Assembly: GCA_023898345.1 (NCBI GenBank) | Contig: CP060218.1 | Span: forward strand, 767,777-831,776 | Origin: Candidatus Woesearchaeota archaeon | GTDB taxonomy: Archaea > Nanobdellota > Nanobdellia > Woesearchaeales > UBA583 | Direction of reading: 5' to 3' | DNA length: 64,000 bases | Position numbers and translations under genes: made by a program | Shown: piece by piece, positions 1-61,303 of the stretch | How the letters are laid out: every line of letters starts with the position of its first letter | How positions within the stretch are numbered: position 1 is the stretch's first letter | Notes under the pieces: generated by a model | Databases searched by the model: none | Seen by the model: the letters and a program-made list of their open reading frames with translations, nothing else | Told to the model about the DNA's origin: nothing

Positions 1-905
1 CTAAAAATTTAATCGAATTATTAAAAATAGATTTAATTCGAAATTATGAAACTAGAGAGGAAAATAGTAATTTATTAAAAGGAAAACTATTAATGTCAAA
101 ACATTTAAGATATAATTTATTTAATAAAGCTAAATTCTATTCTCAGTTTGATGAGTTCACAGAAGATAATTCACTTAACAAAACATTTAAGTTAACTATT
201 GACAAATTACTCAAATTTACTCAAAATTCAAAAAATTTTAAATTACTAACAGAATGTAATTTAATCCTTCAAGATGTTACATTAAATAAGCTTTCAATTA
301 ATGATGTTGAAAAAGTTAAATTTACAAGATTAAATAAACAATATGAGAATATATTCAACTTAGCAAAATTATTATTATTTGAAAATTCCATAGATTTAAA
401 TTCTAAAGACACTAAAACATATTCATTAATGTTTGATATGAATAAATTATTTGAGGAATTTATTTTTGAATTTATAAGAAGAAATTTTCAATTTAGATTT
501 GAAAATATTCAATCAGAAAAACCTCAAAAATATTTATTTATAGATTCGCCTAAATTTATTTTAAAACCAGATATAACTATTAATTGTAATAAAGATAATT
601 GTGAATTAATAATTGATACTAAATACAAAAAAGTTAATGATATAAAATCTGACAAATATGGAGTTTCAAGAGAAGATGTCTATCAAATGTTTGTTTATTC
701 AAAAGTATATAACTGTAAAAATATAATCTTATTATATCCTAAATATGAAAAAGAGATAGAAAACGTAGTGTTTGAATCAGAATTTAATTTCAAACTTCAT
801 ATTAAAACTGTAGATTTACATATAGATTTAATAAAAGACAAAGAGAAATTAAAAAGAGAATTAAATACACTATTAAACATAATCCAAAATGACATTAAAC
901 AATAA
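1..905 (+). CDS. PD-(D/E)xK nuclease, McrC-like C-terminal region (5' partial; frame open to window start)
   Basis: ORF 93..905 has no in-frame stop upstream to position 3; motif PDITIN...ELIIDTKYK resembles the PD-(D/E)xK core of McrC-type subunits; 17-nt overlap with the downstream helicase gene. Confidence 0.4.
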   Translation, partial: KNLIELLKIDLIRNYETREENSNLLKGKLLMSKHLRYNLFNKAKFYSQFDEFTEDNSLNKTFKLTIDKLLKFTQNSKNFKLLTECNLILQDVTLNKLSINDVEKVKFTRLNKQYENIFNLAKLLLFENSIDLNSKDTKTYSLMFDMNKLFEEFIFEFIRRNFQFRFENIQSEKPQKYLFIDSPKFILKPDITINCNKDNCELIIDTKYKKVNDIKSDKYGVSREDVYQMFVYSKVYNCKNIILLYPKYEKEIENVVFESEFNFKLHIKTVDLHIDLIKDKEKLKRELNTLLNIIQNDIKQ

Positions 906-3900
906 CCAAAAAAAAGCAGTTGAAAAGATAAAAGGACCAACTATAGTTCTAGCTGGAGCAGGTACAGGTAAAACTTACACAATAGTAGAAAAAGTAAAGC
1001 ATCTTGTTGAATCAGGTGAATATAAACCTGAAGAAATTTTATGCCTAACCTTTTCAAATGAAGCTGCAAACTCTTTAAAAAATAAAATACAAGAAGGGTT
1101 GAAATCTTTTAAAGTGCCAACTGTTAGAACTTTTCATGGTTTTTGTTTAGATATTCTAAAAGAAGATTCAAACTTACTAAACATAGACAACGGTTTTGAT
1201 ATTCTTCTACCTGATGATGCTAAAGTATTAATGCACAGAGAATTAAACATCTCACCTTATTGGTCTAATAGATATGTATCAACTATATCAAATGCTAAAG
1301 ATTTTGGAATAGAAAAAGTAAAGATAGAAGAATACTTCTTAAAAATAAAGGAACACTTAGCACAAAACTATGATATAAACAATATCGACGAAATAGCAAA
1401 AGAGAAAGAGTTCGACCTAAATACAATTCATCTAGAACCAAATACTAAAGAGATAAGAGCATACAAAAAAGAGATCAAAGAGTTCTTAGAGTTATACAAA
1501 GAGTACGAATCATTTAAAGAGTTTCTTCAAGTCTGGGATGATTTTGAACAATTAAAAAAAGATAAAAACTTTTTAGACTATGGAGATCTAAATCATTTTG
1601 TTTTACATTTATTTAGAAAATTTGGAGCAGATAAGTATACAGATAGATATAAACATGTAATTATAGATGAATTTCAAGATACAAATAAAGTCCAATTTGA
1701 ATTAATAGAACATATTGCAATAGATCACAAAAACATAACAGTAGTAGGAGATCCAAATCAGAGTATTTATGGATTTAGAGGTTCATATAAAGAGAGCTTT
1801 AATCATTTCATGAAAACTTACAATGCAACTGAAAAAGATGAAGTTAAATTAGAAGAGTCCCACAGGTCTACAAATAGAATATTAAATATTGCTCATGATT
1901 TAATTAAAAATAATTATGAGAATCAAGAAGAATGTTTTAAGACATTTAATGCAGAAAAACACGAAGGAAAAAAAGTTAAAATAATTGAGTCTGTTAATAT
2001 GGCAGAAGAAGCAAGAGTAATTGCTGACATAGTTGAAGAAAAATTAAAACAAGGAACTATTGCAAAAGATATATGTATTTTATTTAGAACTCACCGGCAA
2101 GGAGATTACCTAAAAGAGTATTTAAGTTCAAGAAATATTCCTCTAGCTCAAGCAGGAAAGACTAATCTTCTAAACAAAAGAGAGATTAAAACTACTATTT
2201 GCTATCTCTCAATGTTAAACAATCTAGTAACAAGAACTGCAACAGGAGAGCAAGGTTTATGGTCTTTATTTCATTATAAAAACTTTCTTTCAATGGAAGA
2301 CTCATTAAAAATAGGAAGATATCTTAAGAAGAACAAAGACAAATCTATTGATGAAATATTAATGTTTGCAATTAAAGAGTTAGACTTAACTCAAAGTTCA
2401 ATTAAGATAATTAAAAATATTTTAAGTAAGATAAGAGAACTTCACAAGAGATCAAACTTGCCTCTTGAAGAGTTAGTTTTAGAGATATATGAAATTACAG
2501 GATTAAATAGAGCTTTCTCATATCAAAGAACTAATGAGAATGTTGAAGCTTTAATGAATCTTAAGAAATTTTATGATATTGCAAAATCTTTTAGAGAGTT
2601 TCATGGAGATAACTTAAACAACTTTATAGATTATTTAGAAGTATTAAGAGAACTAGGAGTATCAATTGATGCAAGTGAAATTAAAAATGATAATGCTGTA
2701 AGATTTATGACTATTCATGCATCAAAAGGTTTAGAGTTTGAGACTGTAATCGTCTCAAATTTAGCTGAGAAAAGATTTCCAGTATCAAGAACTCAAAATG
2801 AACCTCTAATTCCAAAAGAGTTACTTCCAGACTTAAAACTTTATTTAGAAAAAAAAGGAGAATTAACAGATAAAGAGAAAGAAGATGTAATTAAGAATTA
2901 CGAAAAAGAGATGCTTTTAATTGAGGAAAGAAGGCTCGCTTATGTTGCATTTACAAGAGCAAAAAATGAATTAATATTAACATTTGCAAGAAGTTATGAT
3001 AAAAATCCTGATTCAAATGAAGAGTCTATATTTTTACAAGAGATAGGTTATGATAATTGGAACTCATCTGAAGAGAAAATAGAAAATGAAAATTTAGAAT
3101 ATATTAAAGATGAACAAGAATTAAATACTTCAGTTGCACCAACTTCTCCAAAAGATAAATTATTAGATATTTTAAAGAAACAGATAGTTGAGAGTTTAGA
3201 TAGTGATGATATTAATACTATATTAGATAATATTTCGCAATATAGGACAGTTAAAGAAGAAAAAATAGTTAATCTAAACAAGATGTCAGAAAAAGATTTA
3301 AATAATCTAATTGAGAAGGCTAAGACTAATTTCTCTGGATTAAAATTTGACAAATCTATGATAACACTATCACCATCTGCTTTAATAGATTATAGCGAAT
3401 GTCCAAAAAAATTTGAATTATCAAGAATACTACAAATGCCTCAAAAAAATCAATTTTCTGATGATACTGATGCAGCATCTATTGGTTCATTTGTTCATCA
3501 AGTATTAGAAGATGGAGTAAATAATAAATTCAAATCTGAAAAAGAGTTCTTAGAACACTCTAAAGAGCTAATGAAAAAAGAAGAGTATGAAGGAATGCCT
3601 CAAGATGAAGTTGAGACAATGATTAAAGTATTCTGGCTCAGAAACAAAAATAAATACAATGATAAGTCGCAAACAGAGATTGGTCTATCTATGGAACTTG
3701 ATGGCTTTAAATACTTTGGACTAGCAGATAGAGTAGATGAATTAGAAGATGGAACACTTGAAATTGTAGATTACAAATCTAATAAATCAGCAGTTGATAC
3801 TAAAAAAAGAAATTATCAATTAGGTTACTATGCAATTGCATGTAGAGAATCTATGAAAAGAGAACCATCTAAATTAACTCTTGAAATGTTAAAGTTAGAT

Positions 3901-4113
3901 AAACCTTTAGAAATGTTTGTTGAAGGAAATATTGTAAAAGGTCCAGATGGTAGAACAAAGCCATTTAATCTTGATGAACTAAAAGAAGAATTTAAAATGT
4001 TAGCAAATAAAATTGCAAAAGATTTTGAAAGCGAGTTTAAAGTGAGTGATAATGAGAATGCCTGTAGGTTTTGCGGACTTAAATTTTATTGTCCAAAATA
4101 TAGTGAGGATTGA
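889..4113 (+). CDS. SF1 UvrD/Rep-type helicase fused to C-terminal RecB/Cas4-like PD-(D/E)xK nuclease with Cys cluster
   Basis: Walker A LAGAGTGKT, Walker B VIIDEFQD, C-terminal EIVDYKSNK, QLGYYAIAC and CRFCGLKFYCPKY motifs in the 1074-aa translation. Confidence 0.75.
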   Translation: MTLNNNQKKAVEKIKGPTIVLAGAGTGKTYTIVEKVKHLVESGEYKPEEILCLTFSNEAANSLKNKIQEGLKSFKVPTVRTFHGFCLDILKEDSNLLNIDNGFDILLPDDAKVLMHRELNISPYWSNRYVSTISNAKDFGIEKVKIEEYFLKIKEHLAQNYDINNIDEIAKEKEFDLNTIHLEPNTKEIRAYKKEIKEFLELYKEYESFKEFLQVWDDFEQLKKDKNFLDYGDLNHFVLHLFRKFGADKYTDRYKHVIIDEFQDTNKVQFELIEHIAIDHKNITVVGDPNQSIYGFRGSYKESFNHFMKTYNATEKDEVKLEESHRSTNRILNIAHDLIKNNYENQEECFKTFNAEKHEGKKVKIIESVNMAEEARVIADIVEEKLKQGTIAKDICILFRTHRQGDYLKEYLSSRNIPLAQAGKTNLLNKREIKTTICYLSMLNNLVTRTATGEQGLWSLFHYKNFLSMEDSLKIGRYLKKNKDKSIDEILMFAIKELDLTQSSIKIIKNILSKIRELHKRSNLPLEELVLEIYEITGLNRAFSYQRTNENVEALMNLKKFYDIAKSFREFHGDNLNNFIDYLEVLRELGVSIDASEIKNDNAVRFMTIHASKGLEFETVIVSNLAEKRFPVSRTQNEPLIPKELLPDLKLYLEKKGELTDKEKEDVIKNYEKEMLLIEERRLAYVAFTRAKNELILTFARSYDKNPDSNEESIFLQEIGYDNWNSSEEKIENENLEYIKDEQELNTSVAPTSPKDKLLDILKKQIVESLDSDDINTILDNISQYRTVKEEKIVNLNKMSEKDLNNLIEKAKTNFSGLKFDKSMITLSPSALIDYSECPKKFELSRILQMPQKNQFSDDTDAASIGSFVHQVLEDGVNNKFKSEKEFLEHSKELMKKEEYEGMPQDEVETMIKVFWLRNKNKYNDKSQTEIGLSMELDGFKYFGLADRVDELEDGTLEIVDYKSNKSAVDTKKRNYQLGYYAIACRESMKREPSKLTLEMLKLDKPLEMFVEGNIVKGPDGRTKPFNLDELKEEFKMLANKIAKDFESEFKVSDNENACRFCGLKFYCPKYSED

Positions 4114-4114
4114 A

Positions 4115-4519
4115 ATGGCATTTAAAGAAGAATTACATTTTATTTTTTTGGGAATCTCAACAATATTAACATCATTTTTATTAGATTATTTATTTAATTA
4201 TGCTGAGATTTATTCGAAAATAAATTCAATTATTGCATTAGTATTATTTGGTTTGTTCTTAATTTTTATGACTAAACTAGTTTTGTTTCCAATAACAGCT
4301 TATTTTAATAAATTATTTTTACCTAAAGGATATAAATCAAGAAAATATCTTGATATTAATAATGATTTTAATCTACCAAGCACATCTATTATTACAATAT
4401 TTATTATAGATAATGTTTCAAGTTTATATTCATTAGATTATATTTATTTAGTTATTTTAGTTATTCCTATATTTTTAATAATTCATTATCTAAATGAAAA
4501 TTTCGAGATATATAGTTAA
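4115..4519 (+). CDS. Small integral membrane protein, hypothetical
   Basis: ATG at 4115 directly after helicase stop; multiple hydrophobic helices in translation. Confidence 0.4.
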   Translation: MAFKEELHFIFLGISTILTSFLLDYLFNYAEIYSKINSIIALVLFGLFLIFMTKLVLFPITAYFNKLFLPKGYKSRKYLDINNDFNLPSTSIITIFIIDNVSSLYSLDYIYLVILVIPIFLIIHYLNENFEIYS

Positions 4520-4578
4520 TCATGTTCATATTGATAAATGAACTCTAAAAAAATTATAGATGGTATGTAAAATAAAAT

Positions 4579-4761
4579 TCAAAACTCCAACAAATAAAAA
4601 CCTAAAGCACTTTTACCAATAATTGTGCATTCTAAAAATTTCTTTTTTAGTAAGTTTGGATTTATTCCCTTAGCAGAAACTCTAAAAGTCTCATATTTGT
4701 CATTTAAGAGGAATTTTCCTCTCTTCTCAGATTCAAATTCCATATATTTTGTCGTTTTCAT
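4579..4761 (-). CDS. Hypothetical small protein (60 aa)
   Basis: ORF only; position between membrane protein and integrase. Confidence 0.2.
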   Translation of the reverse strand: MKTTKYMEFESEKRGKFLLNDKYETFRVSAKGINPNLLKKKFLECTIIGKSALGFYLLEF

Positions 4762-53057: not shown

Positions 53058-56000
53058 ATGCAAGAAAAAAATGTAAAACCTCAAAAGCAAAAAATAAAGA
53101 ATACTGTTCTCTCACTCTTTCTCCTTCTCTTTACAAACTGCCTCTTTTTGAGTACGGATGTTTTTTCCACCCATCTCAAAAATGATCTTCCTTATACGAT
53201 TGAGATTTTGGATTTGGGCCAATCTTCAACTTCTCCAATAGAAAAAATCAAACTTACTCAAAATGCTTCTACACTCCTCACATCAGGAAATGCATATCTT
53301 GTACTGCAAACTAGTACAGATAAATCTTCCTTTTGGATGCAAATCCCAAGCGAACTTTCAAGTTCTGCCATAAAAACAACTTACCTCAGACCTTACGAAC
53401 AAGGAAGTCCAAAACTCCTCTCTTCGGTTTGTCAGGCAGAGGCAACACTACAAGAAACGATAAGTACTCTCTCTTCTGATAGTATTATTACGTATACAGC
53501 TTATGCTAATTTTGAAACAAATACAGAACTTGAACAAAGATTAGCTCAATTACAAACAAACTACAAAACTGCGATTGAGAACAATATGTACATGAAAGTC
53601 TTTGCGTATTTAGAGATTACAATAAAAGATGCTGAGAGTGGCCATGAACTGAATAAACGATATCTTCTTCCAACAAAAAGTACGACAGATGGAACTTACT
53701 TCTACAATGCTCAAGTTGAAAATAGCCCGACAAATCTCTATGGAACGTTTGCCCAATTTCAAGATCTTAGCACTTCCACTCACTTTGCTTTTTTCAAGAA
53801 TATTTCTTTAATGAACAATGCGAGAATTCCTTATCAATTACTTAAGGAAGAAAGTTCTCCAAAAACGTTTTCGTTTTCTCTTGCTGAACTCAATCCGTCT
53901 CTCCTTTGGAAAAATAATTCTGTCTACGACCTTACTTTACACCTTATCCCCATAGATGGAAAGTGTGACTTTAATGAAAATGGGATCCTTGAAGAGAATA
54001 GTGAATTCATGGTAACAAGTCTTACTACTGCCACAATTTATCCTTTAAGTAATTCCGATCCTTCCCCCTATAGAAAAATAAAAGTTCTAGGAGAAGGAAA
54101 CATAGCATCCTCCCTTATTGCAAAAAGTCATGAGTGTGGTGATACTCTTTGTACAACATTTCTCTCAACAACTGGAGCTGGTAAAGAGGGGGAATCGTAC
54201 ATTTTAACTGGCATTACTCCTTTTGAATGGACAGCACCGGCAAACAAGGCTCTTTCCTTTACGGCACCAAACAGAAGAGTTTTCTTTTCAGGTCCTTTTA
54301 ATATGAAACTTACATATAATGACGCCAGTGGACAAAGCTACTATCTCCAAAATCTCACTCCTCGTTATCTTACTCCCCAAACTGTACAAAGAATAATTGA
54401 TAGTAAAAAAGACGAACAAAAATATATGAATCTTTTTTTAGGAAAGCAGGCATCAGCGTTTTCTAATTTTGATCTTTTCTTAGACACTTGTTCAGCGCAC
54501 ATCATGGATGAAAGTTTTGATCCAACTACTCATATTCTTACCATAGACGTTCTTAGTAGTCTTGAAGCTTTGAAGAACCCTTGGAATTTCAAGGATATAG
54601 CAGGCTATGAAGATTTTTCAGAATATTACGACATGAAAATTCTTTCTTTCCTAAAGATCTCTAATCCTAGTACGGGTGAGCTAACGTATCTTGCGGCTCA
54701 GGACACCAGCAGCCAGGACTATGCGTATTCACAAGGCGGAGTTGCCGGTACAGACAAGCAATTGGAAACCCTGTTCGGATCGGAATTTCTTCTTCTTAAG
54801 AATAAAATTGCATCATCAGTAGGAACTTACAAGGTTACTAAGGTTAGTGATATGACAACAAGCATTCAGTTTGATCTTTCACCTCTTTATGAGGCTGCGT
54901 TTCTTCCTGAACTGGAGACCCCCCAAATTGAAATTTATGCAATTCCTGTAGATGGAAAATGTGACTTTGATGAGAACGGCCTCCTTGAAGGAACTGAATC
55001 AAAATTAAGTTCTTGGACCATAGAATCTTCTCTGCCTCTTGGCGGCGTACTTGGAACTGAACAAACGCCTATTGAAGTAAAGAAACTTCCTAGAGGGTAT
55101 TCACTGTGGACCACTACGGTAAATGAAGAGACTGCCCAAGAATTAGTCTTTAACAATAAAAAAAATGAAAAAAGACGTTTTGTTCTTCTGTCGAACGGGT
55201 CTCTCTATTTTAAGGATAGGAATGATGAACTCCACTTCATTGCGTTCTCTTCCTTTGTCCCTGTTGAAGCAAATATTTCCATTAACTATAAAGAACTAGT
55301 TGCTGACGGAAGTGAGGAGTTTCTCACGGATCCTAGTATAAATCCCGAAACAAAAGCACCTCTTTACCTAAAAGAAGATACCATATTGAAAATGAATCTT
55401 GTCACTCAGTTTAGAAATAAAGAAGACGCTTTGGAAAAAGTTAACAAGACTCTTACTCTTATGAACTTCTTGGATATTGAAAAAAATCTTACGTACATTG
55501 AAAGCACAAATAGAACACGAGTACTTATTTCAGTAAAAAATGTTCCTCTTTCTTATAGAGAAAATTTAACGATATATGTTGTTCTTCCAAAAGAGGATTT
55601 GCCAAGTTTAGAAAAACTTACTTTGCTTACTAACTCTAAACACTTTTTTGTAAAAGATAAAGACCCTATTATTGGATGGCAGTTTAATTTTAGTGATGAA
55701 AATGAATCGGTCGGATTTGAACTCGAAGGGAATGCCAGTACGGGCACAGTTATTGTGACACAAGACCCTGTTATTTACAATGAAGGAAACCTCCTCATTA
55801 ACTACAGACAAGAACAGTGTAATCCTGATGAAGCTTATCTTTTTGATATCAATGACCTCATTGACTCTCCTGTAAACAGACCGCAAAGTTCGGATCTCTA
55901 CCATATTTGTGTTGGACATACTTCGCACTATTTAACAAATCAAACGCTTAGTTCAGTTCTCAATCTCTTTAATATGACTACGGCTGCGACAGCAAATCTT

Positions 56001-56849
56001 TCTATAACTGGATTTTTTCCGAGTTTCACAATCAACCTTTCAGATCAAACTGACCCTTTTACAACATGGAGTTTTTCCATTGGCAGTCTTAATCCGGGTG
56101 GGTATTCTTGCCTTGGTTCGCTTGAAAACACTGCTAACTCTCTCTTTGGCGATTGTGAGTATACGGAAAATAGAGTGTGGATAAAGCTCAATACGGATGA
56201 TAAATCTCCTCAAACAACAATCAGCATTTCTTCACCGGGCGGCATTATTGAGGCAACACTTAATGCTAGCGATCTCCCAAATCCTGGTGCTTCTGGTGTT
56301 AAGGGAATTTATTATTGCGTGGACGAGCTTGGAGTCTGTAATCCTGATAACATTAGTTCTTTTTCAGCAGGAGAAAATATCACGTTTTCTCTGACGTGTT
56401 CAGGAATTAGCGGCTGCACAAAATATGTTCGTTTCTTTGCAGAAGATAATAAGGGAAATAAGGAAGCTCTTCAAACTGAGACTGTCACAATTTTGGACAA
56501 GGGCTCGAAATGTGAGGCAGATTGTACTGCAAAACCTACACCAAATCGATACCTCAAAGAATGTAATGGCGTTAGTGGATGCAGCTATTATCCTTTTGCT
56601 CCAAATGGTGTTCCGGACGCTGGAGTGTACGTTGCAAATGCCTGCCATTTCCTAACTAAAGGAAGTTATGCTTCATACAATGCTAGCCATGATATTTTGT
56701 GCCCGAATGGACCGGTTATTGCAAAACGTCTTACGAATGAAACTGTTGATACGAAAGAGAGCACTTGTGAACACATCGTTAAAGATAGTTATTTGGTTCT
56801 TGTCAATGGAGAAAAAGTTGAGATGAGTATTCTTGTCTGCCTTTCTTAA
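53058..56849 (+). CDS. Large secreted protein (1263 aa) with internal duplicated domain and Cys-rich C-terminus
   Basis: Signal peptide; repeat IP(I/V)DGKCDF(N/D)ENG(I/L)LE occurs twice. Confidence 0.55.
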   Translation: MQEKNVKPQKQKIKNTVLSLFLLLFTNCLFLSTDVFSTHLKNDLPYTIEILDLGQSSTSPIEKIKLTQNASTLLTSGNAYLVLQTSTDKSSFWMQIPSELSSSAIKTTYLRPYEQGSPKLLSSVCQAEATLQETISTLSSDSIITYTAYANFETNTELEQRLAQLQTNYKTAIENNMYMKVFAYLEITIKDAESGHELNKRYLLPTKSTTDGTYFYNAQVENSPTNLYGTFAQFQDLSTSTHFAFFKNISLMNNARIPYQLLKEESSPKTFSFSLAELNPSLLWKNNSVYDLTLHLIPIDGKCDFNENGILEENSEFMVTSLTTATIYPLSNSDPSPYRKIKVLGEGNIASSLIAKSHECGDTLCTTFLSTTGAGKEGESYILTGITPFEWTAPANKALSFTAPNRRVFFSGPFNMKLTYNDASGQSYYLQNLTPRYLTPQTVQRIIDSKKDEQKYMNLFLGKQASAFSNFDLFLDTCSAHIMDESFDPTTHILTIDVLSSLEALKNPWNFKDIAGYEDFSEYYDMKILSFLKISNPSTGELTYLAAQDTSSQDYAYSQGGVAGTDKQLETLFGSEFLLLKNKIASSVGTYKVTKVSDMTTSIQFDLSPLYEAAFLPELETPQIEIYAIPVDGKCDFDENGLLEGTESKLSSWTIESSLPLGGVLGTEQTPIEVKKLPRGYSLWTTTVNEETAQELVFNNKKNEKRRFVLLSNGSLYFKDRNDELHFIAFSSFVPVEANISINYKELVADGSEEFLTDPSINPETKAPLYLKEDTILKMNLVTQFRNKEDALEKVNKTLTLMNFLDIEKNLTYIESTNRTRVLISVKNVPLSYRENLTIYVVLPKEDLPSLEKLTLLTNSKHFFVKDKDPIIGWQFNFSDENESVGFELEGNASTGTVIVTQDPVIYNEGNLLINYRQEQCNPDEAYLFDINDLIDSPVNRPQSSDLYHICVGHTSHYLTNQTLSSVLNLFNMTTAATANLSITGFFPSFTINLSDQTDPFTTWSFSIGSLNPGGYSCLGSLENTANSLFGDCEYTENRVWIKLNTDDKSPQTTISISSPGGIIEATLNASDLPNPGASGVKGIYYCVDELGVCNPDNISSFSAGENITFSLTCSGISGCTKYVRFFAEDNKGNKEALQTETVTILDKGSKCEADCTAKPTPNRYLKECNGVSGCSYYPFAPNGVPDAGVYVANACHFLTKGSYASYNASHDILCPNGPVIAKRLTNETVDTKESTCEHIVKDSYLVLVNGEKVEMSILVCLS

Positions 56850-56851
56850 AA

Positions 56852-57343
56852 ATGGAAAAAAAAGCTGAAATTCATACTGTCTTCATCTTTATCCTTTCAA
56901 TTATCATGATTCTTTTCATTGGATATCTTGTAACAAAATTTACGCTTACGTTTGTTGAAGATAAAGAAATGAGAGAAAACTCATTAATCTATACACATTT
57001 ACGAGCGGACATAGAAAAAGTTGCTAGTAATTACGGCTCTGAAAAATTTGCTGAGTATAAGGTCTCAAGCAAAGCTCAATATCTGTGTGTTGCTAGTCAA
57101 TCATTCTGTTCACCAGAGGGGACATTGTTACCTGAAAGTACTCTTGAAAAAATTCAAGTTTTATATGAAACTGGATCTAATGTTGTGTTGCTTGATAACA
57201 GTGCAATTCTGACCCACAATAAAATAGAAAATATTAATGCGGATCCTGCTTGCTTTTGTGTAAAAATTAGTAAGGGGATAATCAAGTTGTTTATTGAGAA
57301 TAGGAATAATAAGGTCTTTGTCACGCCATTGGATGATGAATAA
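56852..57343 (+). CDS. Small membrane-anchored protein
   Basis: Single N-terminal TM helix; starts 3 nt after the upstream gene. Confidence 0.4.
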   Translation: MEKKAEIHTVFIFILSIIMILFIGYLVTKFTLTFVEDKEMRENSLIYTHLRADIEKVASNYGSEKFAEYKVSSKAQYLCVASQSFCSPEGTLLPESTLEKIQVLYETGSNVVLLDNSAILTHNKIENINADPACFCVKISKGIIKLFIENRNNKVFVTPLDDE

Positions 57344-57351
57344 GAAAACAA

Positions 57352-57384
57352 GTGTTCTCGAAGTTGAAAACTTCTGCTGAGCAC
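57352..57384. repeat. Hairpin-family repeat, copy 4
   Basis: gtgttctcgaagttgaaaacttctgctgagcac between convergent genes. Confidence 0.6.
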
Positions 57385-57424
57385 TTATAGTATACGAATA
57401 CTCCTAAAACAATAAAAACTTATT

Positions 57425-57441
57425 AAAAAAAAAAAAAAAAA
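57425..57441 (-). terminator. Oligo-T tract (T17 on minus strand) immediately after the S8e stop codon
   Basis: 17 consecutive A on plus strand abutting stop codon at 57442-57444; archaeal termination commonly uses oligo-dT. Confidence 0.5.
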
Positions 57442-57816
57442 TTACTGGACGAAAACTCCGGACAGGTCTCCGCTTTGACCTGGACGGGAAGTTATTCTAA
57501 CATCTCCTTGAGCAGTCTTAACAATACATCCTTTTGTGATAATGTTACGTCTTGTGTAGTTTACATTTGCAGGATTTTGTGCTACTCCTTGAATTTCAAG
57601 ACTAAGGGTTGCCCCGCCTTTATTCACAAGTACTTTCTCTTTACTCAGGAGAGAACGTTTGATGTTACCTCCTCTTACTCTTTTTACTCTCACACGACTT
57701 TTACCGATGTGAGTCAAAGCAGGGTCTGCGCCCAGATCTGAAAGCCTTTTCTTACGGAAGGTAAGGTACTTCCTACCAGATGTTTTTTTTACGGATCTAA
57801 ATTGTGATTTTGCCAT
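57442..57816 (-). CDS. rps8e: Ribosomal protein S8e
   Basis: Characteristic S8e sequence including RRNIITKG and TSRPGQ. Confidence 0.9.
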   Translation of the reverse strand: MAKSQFRSVKKTSGRKYLTFRKKRLSDLGADPALTHIGKSRVRVKRVRGGNIKRSLLSKEKVLVNKGGATLSLEIQGVAQNPANVNYTRRNIITKGCIVKTAQGDVRITSRPGQSGDLSGVFVQ

Positions 57817-57822
57817 TTTTTA

Positions 57823-58401
57823 CTACCTCATTCTTCCTCCATTTGCACGAATACTTGGTCTTGCTTTCTCAGCACCAAATCCTTTGTTCTGAAGTCCTCT
57901 AGATTTTCGACCTGCTGAAGTCAATCCTCGCATAACTCTCTTTGTGTGCTTGTTGCTGCAGTACCTATGCAATTCTTTGTCCGTCATAATTTGAGGATGG
58001 TACACATCAAGAAGAAGAACTTCGTACCAGTAAGAGTATTCATCTTGTCCAACCCAGTAGGAACCAAGAACTTCCATATTTGGATATCGTTTTTGGGCCC
58101 GCTCTTCACAAATCCATTGGTAGTTCTTTGACTGCGCAATTCTTGTTGAAAGATTTCCTCCTGAACGACCTTTCATAATACGAGGGTTGTTTTTTCCACC
58201 TCTTTTAACTCTCACTCGTGTAACAATAACCCCTTGCTTTGCTTTGTACCCTAAAGCATGCGCTCTGTCCGGCCTTGTTGGGTATTCAACACGCTCAATG
58301 GAAAGCCCACGTCTCCATTCGATAAGTCTTTGCCTGTACTCTTCCCCAAGTGTTTCTCTTGGTTTTTTCCAAGCTTCTTTGACATATTTAAGATATCCCA
58401 T
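57823..58401 (-). CDS. rpl15e: Ribosomal protein L15e
   Basis: Characteristic L15e sequence GYKAKQGVIVTRVRVKRGG. Confidence 0.9.
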   Translation of the reverse strand: MGYLKYVKEAWKKPRETLGEEYRQRLIEWRRGLSIERVEYPTRPDRAHALGYKAKQGVIVTRVRVKRGGKNNPRIMKGRSGGNLSTRIAQSKNYQWICEERAQKRYPNMEVLGSYWVGQDEYSYWYEVLLLDVYHPQIMTDKELHRYCSNKHTKRVMRGLTSAGRKSRGLQNKGFGAEKARPSIRANGGRMR

Positions 58402-58942
58402 TTTTTATTTTAACTTCATCCTTTCGGACAAACAATAAGAAGTACAAGATCTAAACTCGCATCAACACGGGTATCATCGCCAGTTTTGAATTGTATTCTT
58501 TGGAAAAGAAACAAATGGAAGTTTATAAATTTCACGCCTTACGACCAAAACAAAGCCCAGAAGAAAAAACTACAAAAATAGGGCACCTAGGTCTCTTTCA
58601 GAAATTTCGGCACTTTGACATGTCATTATTAAAATGTTTAAAGTATCGTTCGAAAGAAATCCGTGCTGTCTTTAGGCTGAGGATGAATTGAATGATAATT
58701 TGTACAACAATCTTGGTATACTCATTTGAAACTCCGTAGAATCCCCTTCTTTTAAGCTGAGAAGTTTGAAGTTTTCTAGCACTTCAATCAATTTTAAAAG
58801 TACAGAGGATTTACAAAAGACTTATCCTTCATAAATATTTTCTAGATTAACCCTGAGACTTGCCAAGGTAAGACCAAAACTGTAACTTTTGAAACTCTTA
58901 GGCAGTCCGTGGACATACCACAATCGAGCAATGTAACTGTTA

Positions 58943-59065
58943 CTTACGAGCAGCGAAAGCCATTGTTCGTGTTCGAGTTAGAAGGACCATTGTTCAAGTT
59001 CAGAGCAAAGGCACCCGCGTTTGCACCATTGTTCCAATTGCCCCCGGACAGGAAAACACCCTTTG
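58943..59065 (-). repeat. DGR template repeat (TR)
   Basis: 123-bp match to 59971-60093; 17 of 19 differences are at TR adenines on the minus strand; TR reads KGVFLSGGNWNNGANAGAFALNLNNGPSNSNTNNGFRCS-stop. Confidence 0.8.
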
Positions 59066-59106
59066 GCTTTTGTATTTGTTTTGATCAGGAATTCCACTTC
59101 CTTTTC

Positions 59107-59481
59107 TTAATATAAATTTGAGGTATACTTCTTTAGTAATCCTCCCAATAACTTACCGAGTAGTTCTGATTTCTCAAGCATTAATAGATATTGATTAAAT
59201 GGCAGAAAATGCAAATCCTTTGCTATCCTAAGAAGAAGTTTAAATTTGTCAAAAAGATAACTTATTTTCCGTAACTGAGAACTCTTATCTTTTTGGTTTA
59301 GTCTTGTAAATTTATCGAGTATGATTAACATTTCTAAAGCTGTTTCATCAATACTCTGCCTCAATGTAAATTTTTCACTCTTAGGGAACCTTGCAAGCGA
59401 AGGATACAAGTTTAGATAAAGATTGTACACTTCATGATAAAGTAAAAAACCATCATCTTTCTTACCACAATTATTTTCCAT
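59107..59481 (-). CDS. Avd-like accessory protein (four-helix-bundle type)
   Basis: 124 aa, size and position between VR and TR; LYP..FPK..LRQ pattern resembles Avd family; similarity judged by eye. Confidence 0.5.
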   Translation of the reverse strand: MENNCGKKDDGFLLYHEVYNLYLNLYPSLARFPKSEKFTLRQSIDETALEMLIILDKFTRLNQKDKSSQLRKISYLFDKFKLLLRIAKDLHFLPFNQYLLMLEKSELLGKLLGGLLKKYTSNLY

Positions 59482-59836
59482 TTTTGTTGTCAGGTTGTTC
59501 CAATTTTCTTATTAGGCCATTCATGTATTTTATACTGTCCTCAAGAGTATTTGAATAATTTTCTTTGAGTATGTTCAAGTCTTTCAAAGTCGATAATTCA
59601 ATTTGAAGTTGTGATAGCAAAATCCTCACCTTGTTGTATATTTGTAACTTTCCTTTCAGAGACCAGTAATTATATCCTGCATTTAAATCGGGGAAAATCT
59701 CTATAACATGAGAGTAAGCTTTTTCGATTAATACTTTATGCCCCGTACTATTTACTCTCAAAGCATCCAATTCTTGAATTATCTTCAAGAAGTTTGGAAA
59801 ATATTCTCGATATATTGGCAAATCAAAAGCATTCAT
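59471..59836 (-). CDS. Hypothetical DGR-associated accessory protein (121 aa)
   Basis: Overlaps the Avd-like ORF by 11 nt, lies between target gene and TR. Confidence 0.35.
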   Translation of the reverse strand: MNAFDLPIYREYFPNFLKIIQELDALRVNSTGHKVLIEKAYSHVIEIFPDLNAGYNYWSLKGKLQIYNKVRILLSQLQIELSTLKDLNILKENYSNTLEDSIKYMNGLIRKLEQPDNKNGK

Positions 59837-59856
59837 TTTTCAGTATAAATTTTTGC

Positions 59857-59903
59857 GAACATGCTTCGCATGTTCTCATCCCTGGGGCGGCATTTAGCCG
59901 CCC
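59857..59903 (-). promoter_or_regulatory. Two perfect hairpins just 3' of the VR (GAACATGC-TTC-GCATGTTC and GGGCGGC-ATTTA-GCCGCCC)
   Basis: Stems read directly from sequence at 59857-59875 and 59885-59903; a GC-only stem stands out in this AT-rich DNA. Confidence 0.4.
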
Positions 59904-59962
59904 GCCAGAACTCCAGAGTACTAGAGTGCCTGAACTCTAAGTTACCATCATTCGTACAATGC

Positions 59963-61303
59963 TCATCGTGCAAAGGAGCAGCGAAAGCCATAGTCCGTGC
60001 TCGAGTGAGAAGGACCATTGTCCAAGCGCAGAGCAAAGGCCCCCGCGCGCGCACCAGAGTCCCAAGCGCCCCCGGACAGGAAAACACCCTTTGACGCACA
60101 ATATCCAGTACAAAAATCGGGATACTCATTCACATTATTATACGCACCCAAAATGTCGTAACCATCGTAATATCTCCCCATTCCTTGATTCGCATTCCAT
60201 CCATTTGAAGGAAGCTTCAAAGTGGGAACAAGACTTGCAACCTTGCCTGTGCCGTCATTGCTATGGTAACTCATCCATTGCTGGTCTCCTCCATGATATC
60301 TGTATGGTGAACCAAGACTCTCATTTGCATAGACCCAAGCGTCAACCCATTCCCAGACATTGCCTGCAAAGTCCCAGAGTACTTCTCCGTTTGACAAGTT
60401 CAAAGTTCTTCTTTGTCCTGCACATGCCCTTCCACTTGTTGTGTCATCACCAGCTACAAAGTTGTTATACGAACCATCACAAGAACTCAGACTATCTCCT
60501 GTCCCAGAGTAGCCATTTCCGTCGTCAGTGTCAGCAGCAAGTCTGCTTGAGGGACTGTTGTCGTTGTGCCCAGAGTACAAGAAACCAGTGCCAACGACAG
60601 AGGAGTTCCAGTTGCTTGCGACAAACTCAACATTGTGTGCAATCGTCAGCCTCTCTTCTTCCGTCATCAAATGAAAGCCAGAACCCAAACTCTCACACTC
60701 TACCTTTGCTGCGTTCCACGTAATCGAAGCCCAAGGTAAACTAGCAGCTTGCGATGTCGCAACACCCCCAACATTCTTTGCTTCGTACTTCATCACACAA
60801 AAATTGTGTGTGCCGAGTTCAGCATTTCCGGGAACGACAACATAGCCGTCCGGACATGGGTTCTCGTACACGTAAGAATTCACATACTCCGTCTTTGAAT
60901 AAATCCTGCCATCCGTCACAACGACAATCTCATTCTTCCCTTCGTTGGCGCAGTCACTCATAGGCAAGACATTCAAAGAATTGTTTGTCAAACCAGAAAC
61001 AAAGCAATCATTTCCGTTAATAGAAACGCTTTGGATTTTAGCATTTCCCTTCACAAAAAGAGTTCCGCCAGACAGACCTTCAACAGAGAAAGAGCCAGAA
61101 GAACTTTGTGTGTCGACATGTGAAAGTGTAGAACTAGAAAAAGATTGGTACCAGGTTTGAAATCCGAGTGCCGCCAGAATAGCAACGACAATCAGCAAGA
61201 CACTAGCGACAACAGGAGAAATAGCTTTTTTCGAAGAGAGACACGAAGAAGACATCCTAAAATTAGACGAGACAAGTTTTGGGGAAAGCTTAGTTCTGTT
61301 CAT
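59963..61303 (-). CDS. DGR target protein: N-terminal TM anchor, C-terminal C-type-lectin/FGE-like variable domain
   Basis: ATG at 61303; TM segment VVASVLLIVVAILAALG; C-terminus ...NVWEWVDAW...GGAWDSGARAGAFALRLDNGPSHSSTDYGFRCSFAR; VR is the last 41 codons. Confidence 0.8.
   Translation of the reverse strand: MNRTKLSPKLVSSNFRMSSSCLSSKKAISPVVASVLLIVVAILAALGFQTWYQSFSSSTLSHVDTQSSSGSFSVEGLSGGTLFVKGNAKIQSVSINGNDCFVSGLTNNSLNVLPMSDCANEGKNEIVVVTDGRIYSKTEYVNSYVYENPCPDGYVVVPGNAELGTHNFCVMKYEAKNVGGVATSQAASLPWASITWNAAKVECESLGSGFHLMTEEERLTIAHNVEFVASNWNSSVVGTGFLYSGHNDNSPSSRLAADTDDGNGYSGTGDSLSSCDGSYNNFVAGDDTTSGRACAGQRRTLNLSNGEVLWDFAGNVWEWVDAWVYANESLGSPYRYHGGDQQWMSYHSNDGTGKVASLVPTLKLPSNGWNANQGMGRYYDGYDILGAYNNVNEYPDFCTGYCASKGVFLSGGAWDSGARAGAFALRLDNGPSHSSTDYGFRCSFAR
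59971..60093 (-). repeat. DGR variable repeat (VR) at the 3' end of the target gene
   Basis: Aligned to TR by hand; all 11 AAY codons of TR are substituted in VR. Confidence 0.8.

Follow-up and report, generated by a model that had tools for sequence, protein, structure and literature searches.

A repeat-and-hairpin module 3' of the variable repeat, a candidate target-site marker in a recently active archaeal diversity-generating retroelement

Target finding and the integration of mutagenised cDNA form the least understood step of diversity-generating retroelements (DGRs); apart from the initiation of mutagenic homing (IMH) sequence, the only mapped DGR cis element that we know of is the hairpin of phage BPP-1. 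Efficient homing in BPP-1 requires a segment of 24 bp, with 8-bp inverted repeats, on the 3' side of the variable repeat (VR); its stem matters as a structure and not as a sequence, while the sequence and size of its loop are both critical (PMC3240598). Phage DGR hairpins have G/C stems of 7-10 bp and GRNA loops on the sense strand, and lie 4-34 bp from the VR (PMC3240598), a rule of loop and distance that is used in myDGR annotation (PMC6602519). Group IIC introns, discussed in the same context, target terminator stem-loops (PMC3240598). In archaea, two reports on nanoarchaeal DGRs describe hairpins with 'highly constrained GRA trinucleotide loops' inside the target open reading frame (ORF), within 46 codons past the VR (PMC4372165, PMC5006420). 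Here we describe the region 3' of the VR in a DGR from a Candidatus Woesearchaeota archaeon, within a 64,000-nt stretch of contig CP060218.1 (positions 767,777 to 831,776, referred to as the window). Between the VR and a small accessory gene, X, lies a non-coding module of about 90 nt (59946 to 59857, minus strand), made up of a leader, four tandem repeats, hairpin A, a variable spacer and hairpin B, which we are inclined, if only slightly, to read as the target-site marker of this DGR family and a variant of the known DGR target-site hairpin element. The parts of this region are as follows.

59976 to 60090, minus strand: VR, at the 3' end of the target gene; 115 nt aligned without gaps to the template repeat (TR).
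59935 to 59946, minus strand: leader GGTAAC-TTAGAG, which opens the module and has the consensus GGTAAC-TTTAGA (alignments A2 and A4).
59905 to 59936, minus strand: four tandem 8-nt units, AGTTCAGG CACTCTAG TACTCTGG AGTTCTGG, ending in GG; family consensus nnnTCTGG.
59884 to 59904, minus strand: hairpin A, GGGCGGC-TAAAT-GCCGCCC, with a 7-bp all-G/C stem (59903-59897 with 59891-59885) and loop 59896-59892.
59857 to 59875, minus strand: hairpin B, GAACATGC-GAA-GCATGTTC, with an 8-bp stem (4 G/C), a 3-nt loop and the apex GCGAAGC.

On the minus strand the region reads ...GGCTTTCGCTGCTC CTTTGCACGA TGA GCATTGTACGAATGATGGTAACTTAGAGTTCAGGCACTCTAGTACTCTGGAGTTCTGG C GGGCGGC TAAAT GCCGCCC CAGGGATGA GAACATGC GAA GCATGTTC GCAAAAATTTATACTGAAAA ATG. 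Identity between VR and TR ends at 59976, with ..GGCTTTCGCTGCTC; from there it is 73 nt to the start of hairpin A, and 101 and 119 nt to the start and end of hairpin B. A weak ungapped similarity between VR and TR runs on to 59949 and, if it is counted as VR, the hairpins lie at 45 and 73 nt. These are the two perfect inverted repeats of the original prediction (7 bp all-GC with a 5-nt loop, 8 bp with a 3-nt loop), which put them 68-115 nt past the VR; this implies a VR end near 59971, a trivial difference from the 73-119 nt found here, and their position is borne out. For both strands of the 47-nt stretch, the fold of lowest free energy consists of the two hairpins, whether as DNA (-17.0 and -17.5 kcal/mol; z -6.6 and -7.2) or as RNA (-25.3 and -24.9 kcal/mol; z -5.8 and -5.5), and in both cases none of 200 shuffles was as good. 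The fold-energy calculation proposed as a check on them thus comes out in their favour, with z between -5.5 and -7.2.

Counts within the window leave some room for chance inverted repeats without a function. Perfect stems of at least 7 bp with loops of 3-6 nt are as frequent as expected (23 observed, 31 +/- 6 in first-order Markov simulations), and two such hairpins at most 30 nt apart arose in 31% of simulations; an all-G/C 7-bp stem, in a window of about 35% GC, arose in none of 100. By the statistics of the window alone, therefore, hairpin A is the one exceptional element, and the weight of the evidence lies in the conservation of the module in relatives, where compensatory changes over about 20 loci refute an origin by chance and make it practically negligible. 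A coding explanation was also rejected, since the two ORFs over the hairpins (59833-60129, minus strand, and 59861-60094, plus strand) cross the hypervariable VR and the modules of relatives differ by 1-nt indels. A search of 58300-60200 with the Rfam 15 covariance models found no family at the module, and the only match elsewhere in that range was a chance-level snoRNA (E 0.79). A further short inverted repeat at the stop codon, CATTG-NNN-CAATG (about 59958-59946), is not claimed as a hairpin, since in several relatives it is mostly conserved sequence, in others it is absent, and it shows little covariation.

Relatives were recruited through homologues of X, which gave about 30 loci, of which about 20 were used for the comparison of modules. 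In every main-clade locus hairpin A is present 3' of the VR and upstream of X. Its stems vary (GGGCGGC, GGGTGGC, GGGATGGC, GGACGGC, GGGACGGC, GTGGCGGC), each with a perfect complement, around an invariant GGC/GCC closing segment and a loop that is TAAAT throughout except for a single TTAAT. In a MAFFT alignment of 17 loci with 8 stem pairs, pairing holds in 88% of cells and drops to 32-48% once the 3' partner is shifted by 1-3 columns; 4 of the 8 pairs show double, compensatory changes, and the covariation score of 0.43 (0.13 in shuffles) was reached by none of 500 shuffles. RNAalifold predicts the same helix unprompted. The original prediction had taken the hairpins for candidate cis elements of the DGR and had named a lack of conservation in related loci as grounds for abandoning the idea; with hairpin A in every main-clade locus and compensated in this way, and hairpin B recovered in 11 of 16 lineages, the idea is instead strengthened. 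Variable stems around a conserved loop are also the pattern found to matter experimentally in BPP-1 (PMC3240598), and we count this in favour of a target-site role.

The position of the module is equally constrained. In 14 of 18 loci hairpin A begins 72-77 nt past the point where VR/TR identity stops; the exceptions are at 80, 95 and 128 nt, the two longest (L004 and L022) being accounted for by inserted sequence that folds into hairpins of its own. Between hairpin A and the X start codon there are as few as 11 or as many as 106 nt. Near-fixed spacing on one side and variable spacing on the other indicate that the module is tied to the VR rather than to the gene that follows. R1, a covariance model of this element, gives a single hit in each DGR, invariably 3' of the VR; the sequence past the TR and the rest of the 64-kb window contain no copy.

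This spacing is the opposite of what would be expected if the module were a promoter-proximal, double-stranded operator or promoter for X-avd-TR, its palindrome and repeats binding a regulator of DGR RNA expression, perhaps X or the accessory protein Avd. Such a role would suit a module that lies upstream of X in all loci and that combines direct repeats with a palindrome, a typical operator architecture, beside a gene that is small, helical, family-specific and always adjacent; symmetric changes in a palindrome can also arise by co-evolution with a dimeric binding protein. At the outer stem positions of hairpin A, however, even close relatives (X 70-84% identical) vary freely, as suits pairing and not sequence read-out, the 8-nt period does not match the helical repeat of DNA, and the sole TATA-like box seen by inspection, TTTATA, lies downstream of both hairpins and, at 8-13 nt before the ATG, too near to it. 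We regard an operator as quite improbable.

The few departures from Watson-Crick pairing are informative about the strand. Hairpin A of L005 has one G.T, and all other main-clade changes are from one Watson-Crick pair to another. In a sub-clade (L003, L004, L028 and L029) the element is GCGAGC-TTAAT-GCGAGC, which forms a helix only with tandem G.A pairs allowed; these replace two stem pairs in the context 5'-C-GA-G-3'. Both G.T and tandem G.A are tolerable only on the sense strand, the other strand having C.T or A.C mismatches at these positions, so that a hairpin of sense-strand single-stranded DNA or of RNA fits better than a symmetric cruciform. This asymmetry suits DNA and RNA alike.

Hairpin B is the more variable of the two. 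Between hairpin A and X, a hairpin better than those of shuffles (p<=0.05) was found in 11 of 16 lineages, and this best-hairpin-versus-shuffle test is the unbiased check; a hand-centred alignment, in which 87.5% of cells are paired and 8 of 8 pairs show double changes, is biased upward by the choice of hairpins. The stems differ (GAACATGC, GCACATGC, GCGATGC, CTCACGC, AGGCATGC, GCGAACGT, GTAGC) around an apex of the form GC-[G/A][A/T]A-GC. The window, L001, L006 and L022 have precisely GCGAAGC at the apex; the loop is GAA in these and in L003, and AAA or ATA in L007, L019, L004, L025 and L030, giving relatives with GCAAAGC or GCATAGC. GCGAAGC is the canonical DNA mini-hairpin motif (reviewed in PMC13037366), and for an octamer close to it, GCGAAAGC, the melting temperature is 76.5 C in the DNA form and 39 C in the RNA form (PMC13037366).

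The four 8-nt units, the last of which directly abuts hairpin A, were not part of the original prediction, which had likewise missed the archaeal nature of the system and the terminator-like features of its relatives. The units align across 13-17 loci. Autocorrelation at a lag of 8 exceeds that at all other lags from 5 to 12 in 19 of 20 loci (it is third-highest in L030), with p<0.05 in 18 of 20. A divergent sub-clade has the unit nnnTGTGG, and a distant group (L012 and L014-L016; X about 30% identical) has AGACGGnn; all groups share four units, the 8-nt period, a position shortly past the VR and a TTTAGA before the units. As the repeats are kept where the hairpin shrinks to 3-4 bp, the repeat architecture is conserved more deeply than the hairpin.

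Some further features of the array stand apart from this comparison. GG recurs every 8 nt on the sense strand, at 59905-59936 and in the equivalent positions of all related loci, and is followed by the G-runs of the 5' arm of hairpin A; this periodicity has the potential for a two-tetrad G-quadruplex, which would compete with hairpin A. L017 and L018 encode an identical X protein and have the same hairpin A and differ in their first two repeat units, where L018 carries the version of L019, which suggests recombination or rapid turnover inside the array. L020 contains a 1.7-kb tandem duplication (487-2234 and 2222-3969; 99.9% identical, two differing positions) of the whole target gene and module, which could be real or an assembly artefact; as a 99.9% tandem copy, its two targets are uninformative as a natural test of whether the module follows every VR.

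We infer a role of the module in retrohoming from its anatomy and its conservation. As a counterpart of the BPP-1 hairpin or cruciform 3' of the VR, it would aid the integration of adenine-mutagenised cDNA. The hairpins would form on the sense strand while the DNA is transiently single-stranded, their stems being read as structure and their loops and the direct repeats as sequence, and they would be recognised by the RT-Avd(-X) machinery (RT, reverse transcriptase) or by a host factor. In this way the module would mark the recipient VR apart from the donor TR, which has no such module. Guide-like pairing of the spacer RNA 3' of the TR with either strand of the VR flank was considered as well and rejected, the duplex energies being not consistently better than those of shuffles (z -2.3 to +2.3).

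Several observations weigh against a target-site marker. Hairpin B was not found in L017, L020, L024, L028 and L029 and is degenerate in L019, and the 5 of 16 lineages without an intact hairpin B keep active-looking VR/TR pairs, which implies that hairpin B is dispensable. Hairpin A is a poor helix in the L028/L029 sub-clade, where it may be conserved as sequence rather than as structure; in the group with X about 30% identical (L012 and L014-L016) the abutting hairpin has 3-4 bp at best, and only the 8-nt repeats are clearly kept. Neither hairpin has the 4-nt GRNA loop or the 4-34 bp distance of the operational rule. The sample is one clade, all of its loci found through X, and among them no locus with a remote second VR was found, so that the module is inseparable from its position between target and X-avd-TR. 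Finally, T-runs of at least 5 within 20 nt past hairpin A occur in 6 of 12 main-clade lineages, compared with 8.8% of background 20-nt windows.

These T-runs would suit a role in the transcript, where hairpin A, with its T-run, would terminate or stabilise the 3' end of the target mRNA, and hairpin B would structure the 3' untranslated region or the 5' end of the X-avd-TR RNA, with no direct part in retrohoming. The module comes directly after the stop codon, which in most loci lies 51-62 nt ahead of hairpin A, its hairpins fold equally well as RNA, and G.A, G.T and the sense-strand asymmetry also suit RNA. In the window, L017 and L030, however, no T-run follows hairpin A, and a bacterial-type terminator and promoter scan found nothing at either hairpin. 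In the window neither hairpin is followed by a T-run on either strand; the intrinsic-terminator arrangement of a G/C hairpin with an immediate T-run is found in 6 of 12 related lineages and not in the window. Termination in archaea depends on oligo-T and needs no hairpin. Terminators are not marked by an invariant 5-nt loop, an invariant GGC/GCC closing segment or four phased repeats. Wobble intermediates, usual in RNA helices, are limited to a single G-U cell in the main clade, and hairpins of the GCGAAGC type have a much higher stability in DNA than in RNA (PMC13037366). We hold a purely transcript-level function to be rather unlikely. The terminator alternative that accompanied the original prediction finds some support in the T-runs of relatives and none in the window, and a terminator-like role is plausible in many relatives, where it could coexist with target marking.

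The target-site marker that we favour sits among genes that all lie, like the module and the TR, on the minus strand, in the order RT - target/VR - module - X - avd - TR. The other components are as follows.

61510 to 62533, minus strand: DGR RT; RVT_1 match (E 2.3e-23), YVDD and IGNVTSQ in the translation.
59963 to 61303, minus strand: target gene, 446 aa (stop codon 59965-59963); archaeal pilin-like at the N-terminus, FGE-sulfatase/C-type-lectin-like at the C-terminus, which includes the VR.
59471 to 59836, minus strand: gene X, 121 aa; conserved DGR-linked accessory gene with no Pfam match.
59107 to 59481, minus strand: avd, 124 aa; PF22296 bAvd, E 3e-14, 53.9 bits against a cut-off of 40.
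58948 to 59062, minus strand: TR, downstream of avd.

X has 37 homologue clusters, all of them in contigs of Woesearchaeota/Nanoarchaeota type (annotated metagenome-assembled genomes); viral collections gave neither homologues of X nor matches to the module pattern. All loci with both flanks of X share the arrangement VR - non-coding spacer - X - avd - TR, contigs L002 and L010 being truncated or degenerate and so uninformative. L010 was considered as a counterexample, with X not preceded by a module, and was set aside as a decayed locus in which X is disrupted and neither VR nor TR is present. An AlphaFold model of X, built from a 32-sequence alignment, is a four-helix bundle with a pLDDT of 91.7. 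Its best matches in the PDB are 2gsc and 2rld, which are pentameric 23S-rRNA-IVS/Avd-like proteins (TM 0.56-0.70 across chains); it matches Avd 4dwl with a TM of 0.59, and the Avd chains of the 2024 DGR ribonucleoprotein structures also match. The E-values of these structure matches are weak, as is usual for helical bundles, and hhalign detected no sequence similarity between X and the neighbouring Avd. To judge from the predicted fold, X is apparently a second Avd-like accessory gene of the DGRs of this clade.

TRAP is a ring protein that reads phased triplets, and it serves as the model for a tentative and rather doubtful proposal, in which X, alone or with Avd and as an oligomer, would read the four repeats and the pentaloop hairpin as a landing pad. 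Each X/Avd subunit would contact one repeat on single-stranded sense DNA, and unit sequence (TCTGG, TGTGG, AGACGG) and protein would co-vary between sub-clades. If true, the landing pad would be a protein-guided target-recognition step for the integration of DGR cDNA, mechanistically unsolved so far.

The DGR itself has been active very recently. The RT is of DGR type on the strength of its RVT_1 match and its motifs; we take IGNVTSQ to fit IGxxxSQ, the form typical of DGRs. The DGR accessory protein Avd is present, and its match to NCBIfam NF033474 DivGenRetAVD (E 2.9e-15, 56.4 bits) lies under the curated 80-bit cut-off. VR and TR differ at 16 positions, 15 of them TR adenines, and the same adenine-directed pattern occurs in about 15 related loci; a search of the window for further VRs found none. 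A near-identical strain, L031 (GCA_002505525.1, contig DAVJ01000008.1), differs from window positions 55401-60090 over its positions 1-4690 at 17 of 4,690 nt: 16 of the 17 differences fall inside the 115-nt VR, 15 of these 16 at TR adenines, and one falls in the 4,575 flanking nt. The TR is identical in the two strains, and all 17 mismatches between the L031 VR and the TR are at TR adenines. Differences concentrated in this way in the VR and at TR adenines are evidence of ongoing diversification. The L031 contig begins exactly at the 5' edge of the VR, and those of L001, L019, L024 and L029 also end in or near theirs, which suggests that assemblies break at the hypervariable repeat.

The Pfam matches of the target protein, Pilin_N (E 0.02) and FGE-sulfatase (E 0.001), are below threshold in the window. 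The weak match of FGE-sulfatase type covers residues 181-331, upstream of the VR-encoded C-terminus, and FGE-sulfatase is recorded for the homologous targets of L020, L025 and L027. A KKAISPVVASVLLIVVAILA segment is typical of archaeal type IV pilin-like signal peptides and, going by this segment, the diversified protein is probably displayed on a pilus-like or other surface structure. Genes for ribosomal proteins L15e and S8e adjoin the DGR downstream and identify the host as an archaeon. The roughly 520 nt between the TR and the L15e gene (about 58402-58947, minus strand) are non-coding and gave no Rfam match; the first ~110 nt of this TR 3' flank are conserved across loci (GTAAGTAACA ... 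CTCGAWTRTGRTAWGTC ... CTAAGAGTTTCAAAGGTTACAGTTTTGGTCTT, also read as GTAAGTAACA...CTAAGAGTTTCAAA.GTTACAG) and presumably correspond to the spacer of the DGR RNA, the part from which cDNA synthesis is primed.

At the other end of the locus, a mechanically called ORF of 856 aa (62533 to 59963) joins the RT and target genes through a stop-free tandem repeat. Between the RT and the target ATG at 61303 lies a perfect 13-nt repeat, 13 copies of GGTTCAGAGACAG (61315-61483, minus strand), with no stop in any frame. Arrays are also present at this junction in L006 (about 10 copies of the 13-nt unit GGTTCAGAGACAG) and L004 (6 copies of GAACAGAAATCAG), where the RT frame is not fused to the target, and short versions occur in L020, L022 and L027. 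As 13 is not a multiple of 3, the copy number sets whether the frames fuse or terminate, and the repeat may be a phase-variable junction or an expression switch.

The module can now be set against the known systems. In terms of the operational hairpin rule, both elements are stems of 7-10 bp downstream of the VR (7 bp all G/C in hairpin A, 8 bp with 4 G/C in hairpin B); a stem conserved in structure, a loop conserved in sequence, and presence after the VR together with absence after the TR are found as well. Hairpin A in particular resembles the BPP-1 element in its behaviour, apart from its pentaloop and its greater distance. The two elements share with BPP-1 and the phage DGRs a G/C-rich inverted repeat of 7-10 bp after the VR and not the TR, a stem that is free in sequence and kept in pairing, a conserved loop on the sense strand and a constrained spacing. 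They differ in their loops, TAAAT (5 nt) and GAA (3 nt) instead of GRNA (4 nt), in their distances of 73 or 101 nt instead of 4-34 bp, and in being two hairpins, the first of them abutted by four 8-nt repeats, in an archaeal host. Two viral contigs from IMG/VR whose RTs are 33% identical, L032 (4203-4290) and L033 (2758-2845), carry a canonical GRNA hairpin, with a 9-bp G/C stem and a GATA loop about 38 nt past the VR. The order past the VR is GGTAATCT GTAATCT (a 7-nt tandem), a CCCGG-CAAT-CCGGG hairpin and then the GGGGTGGGC-GATA-GCCCATCCCC hairpin, whose G-rich 5' arm GGGGTGGGC resembles that of hairpin A; these two independent loci have neither X nor a four-by-eight array.

Intrinsic terminators and the targets of group IIC introns are comparable in having a G/C hairpin past the stop codon, followed here by T5-T6 in half of the relatives, and they offer a retroelement precedent for the use of terminator-like stem-loops; the module differs from terminators in the lack of a T-run in the window, the archaeal host, the invariant loop and the flanking repeats. 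The apex of hairpin B is exactly the DNA mini-hairpin d(GCGAAGC), and the G-C-closed GRNA loops of phages fit its sister motif d(GCGNNAGC), with the difference that here the motif caps an 8-bp stem and that relatives have GCAAAGC or GCATAGC. By analogy, the GCGAAGC apex is a lead towards a DNA-level hairpin on the sense strand and not a test of it.

The GRA hairpins of the Nanoarchaeota (PMC4372165, PMC5006420) also belong to archaeal (DPANN) DGRs and lie tens of nt past the VR; the GAA loop of hairpin B is a GRA trinucleotide. The original prediction allowed that the hairpins might lie where no DGR cis element would be expected: their 73 and 101 nt do exceed the phage range of 4-34 bp, but the nanoarchaeal hairpins are reported within 46 codons past the VR. 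Both hairpins here are non-coding, past the stop codon at 59965-59963, whereas the nanoarchaeal ones are inside the target ORF; relatives here also have AAA or ATA loops, and hairpin B is lost or degenerate in 5 of 16 lineages. The two papers, as far as their text was read, describe no TAAAT-loop hairpin, 8-nt repeats or second Avd-like gene. Annotation by GRNA loop and 4-34 bp distance would miss elements such as these, which R1 picks up cleanly, once in each DGR. Taken together, this archaeal clade offers a richer target-side module and a second Avd-like protein as testable candidates for what is recognised in a DGR target and by what, and the variant that it adds to the known target-site hairpins is best seen as composite, an active archaeal DGR here combining repeats with a pentaloop hairpin and, optionally, a hairpin with the GCGAAGC apex.

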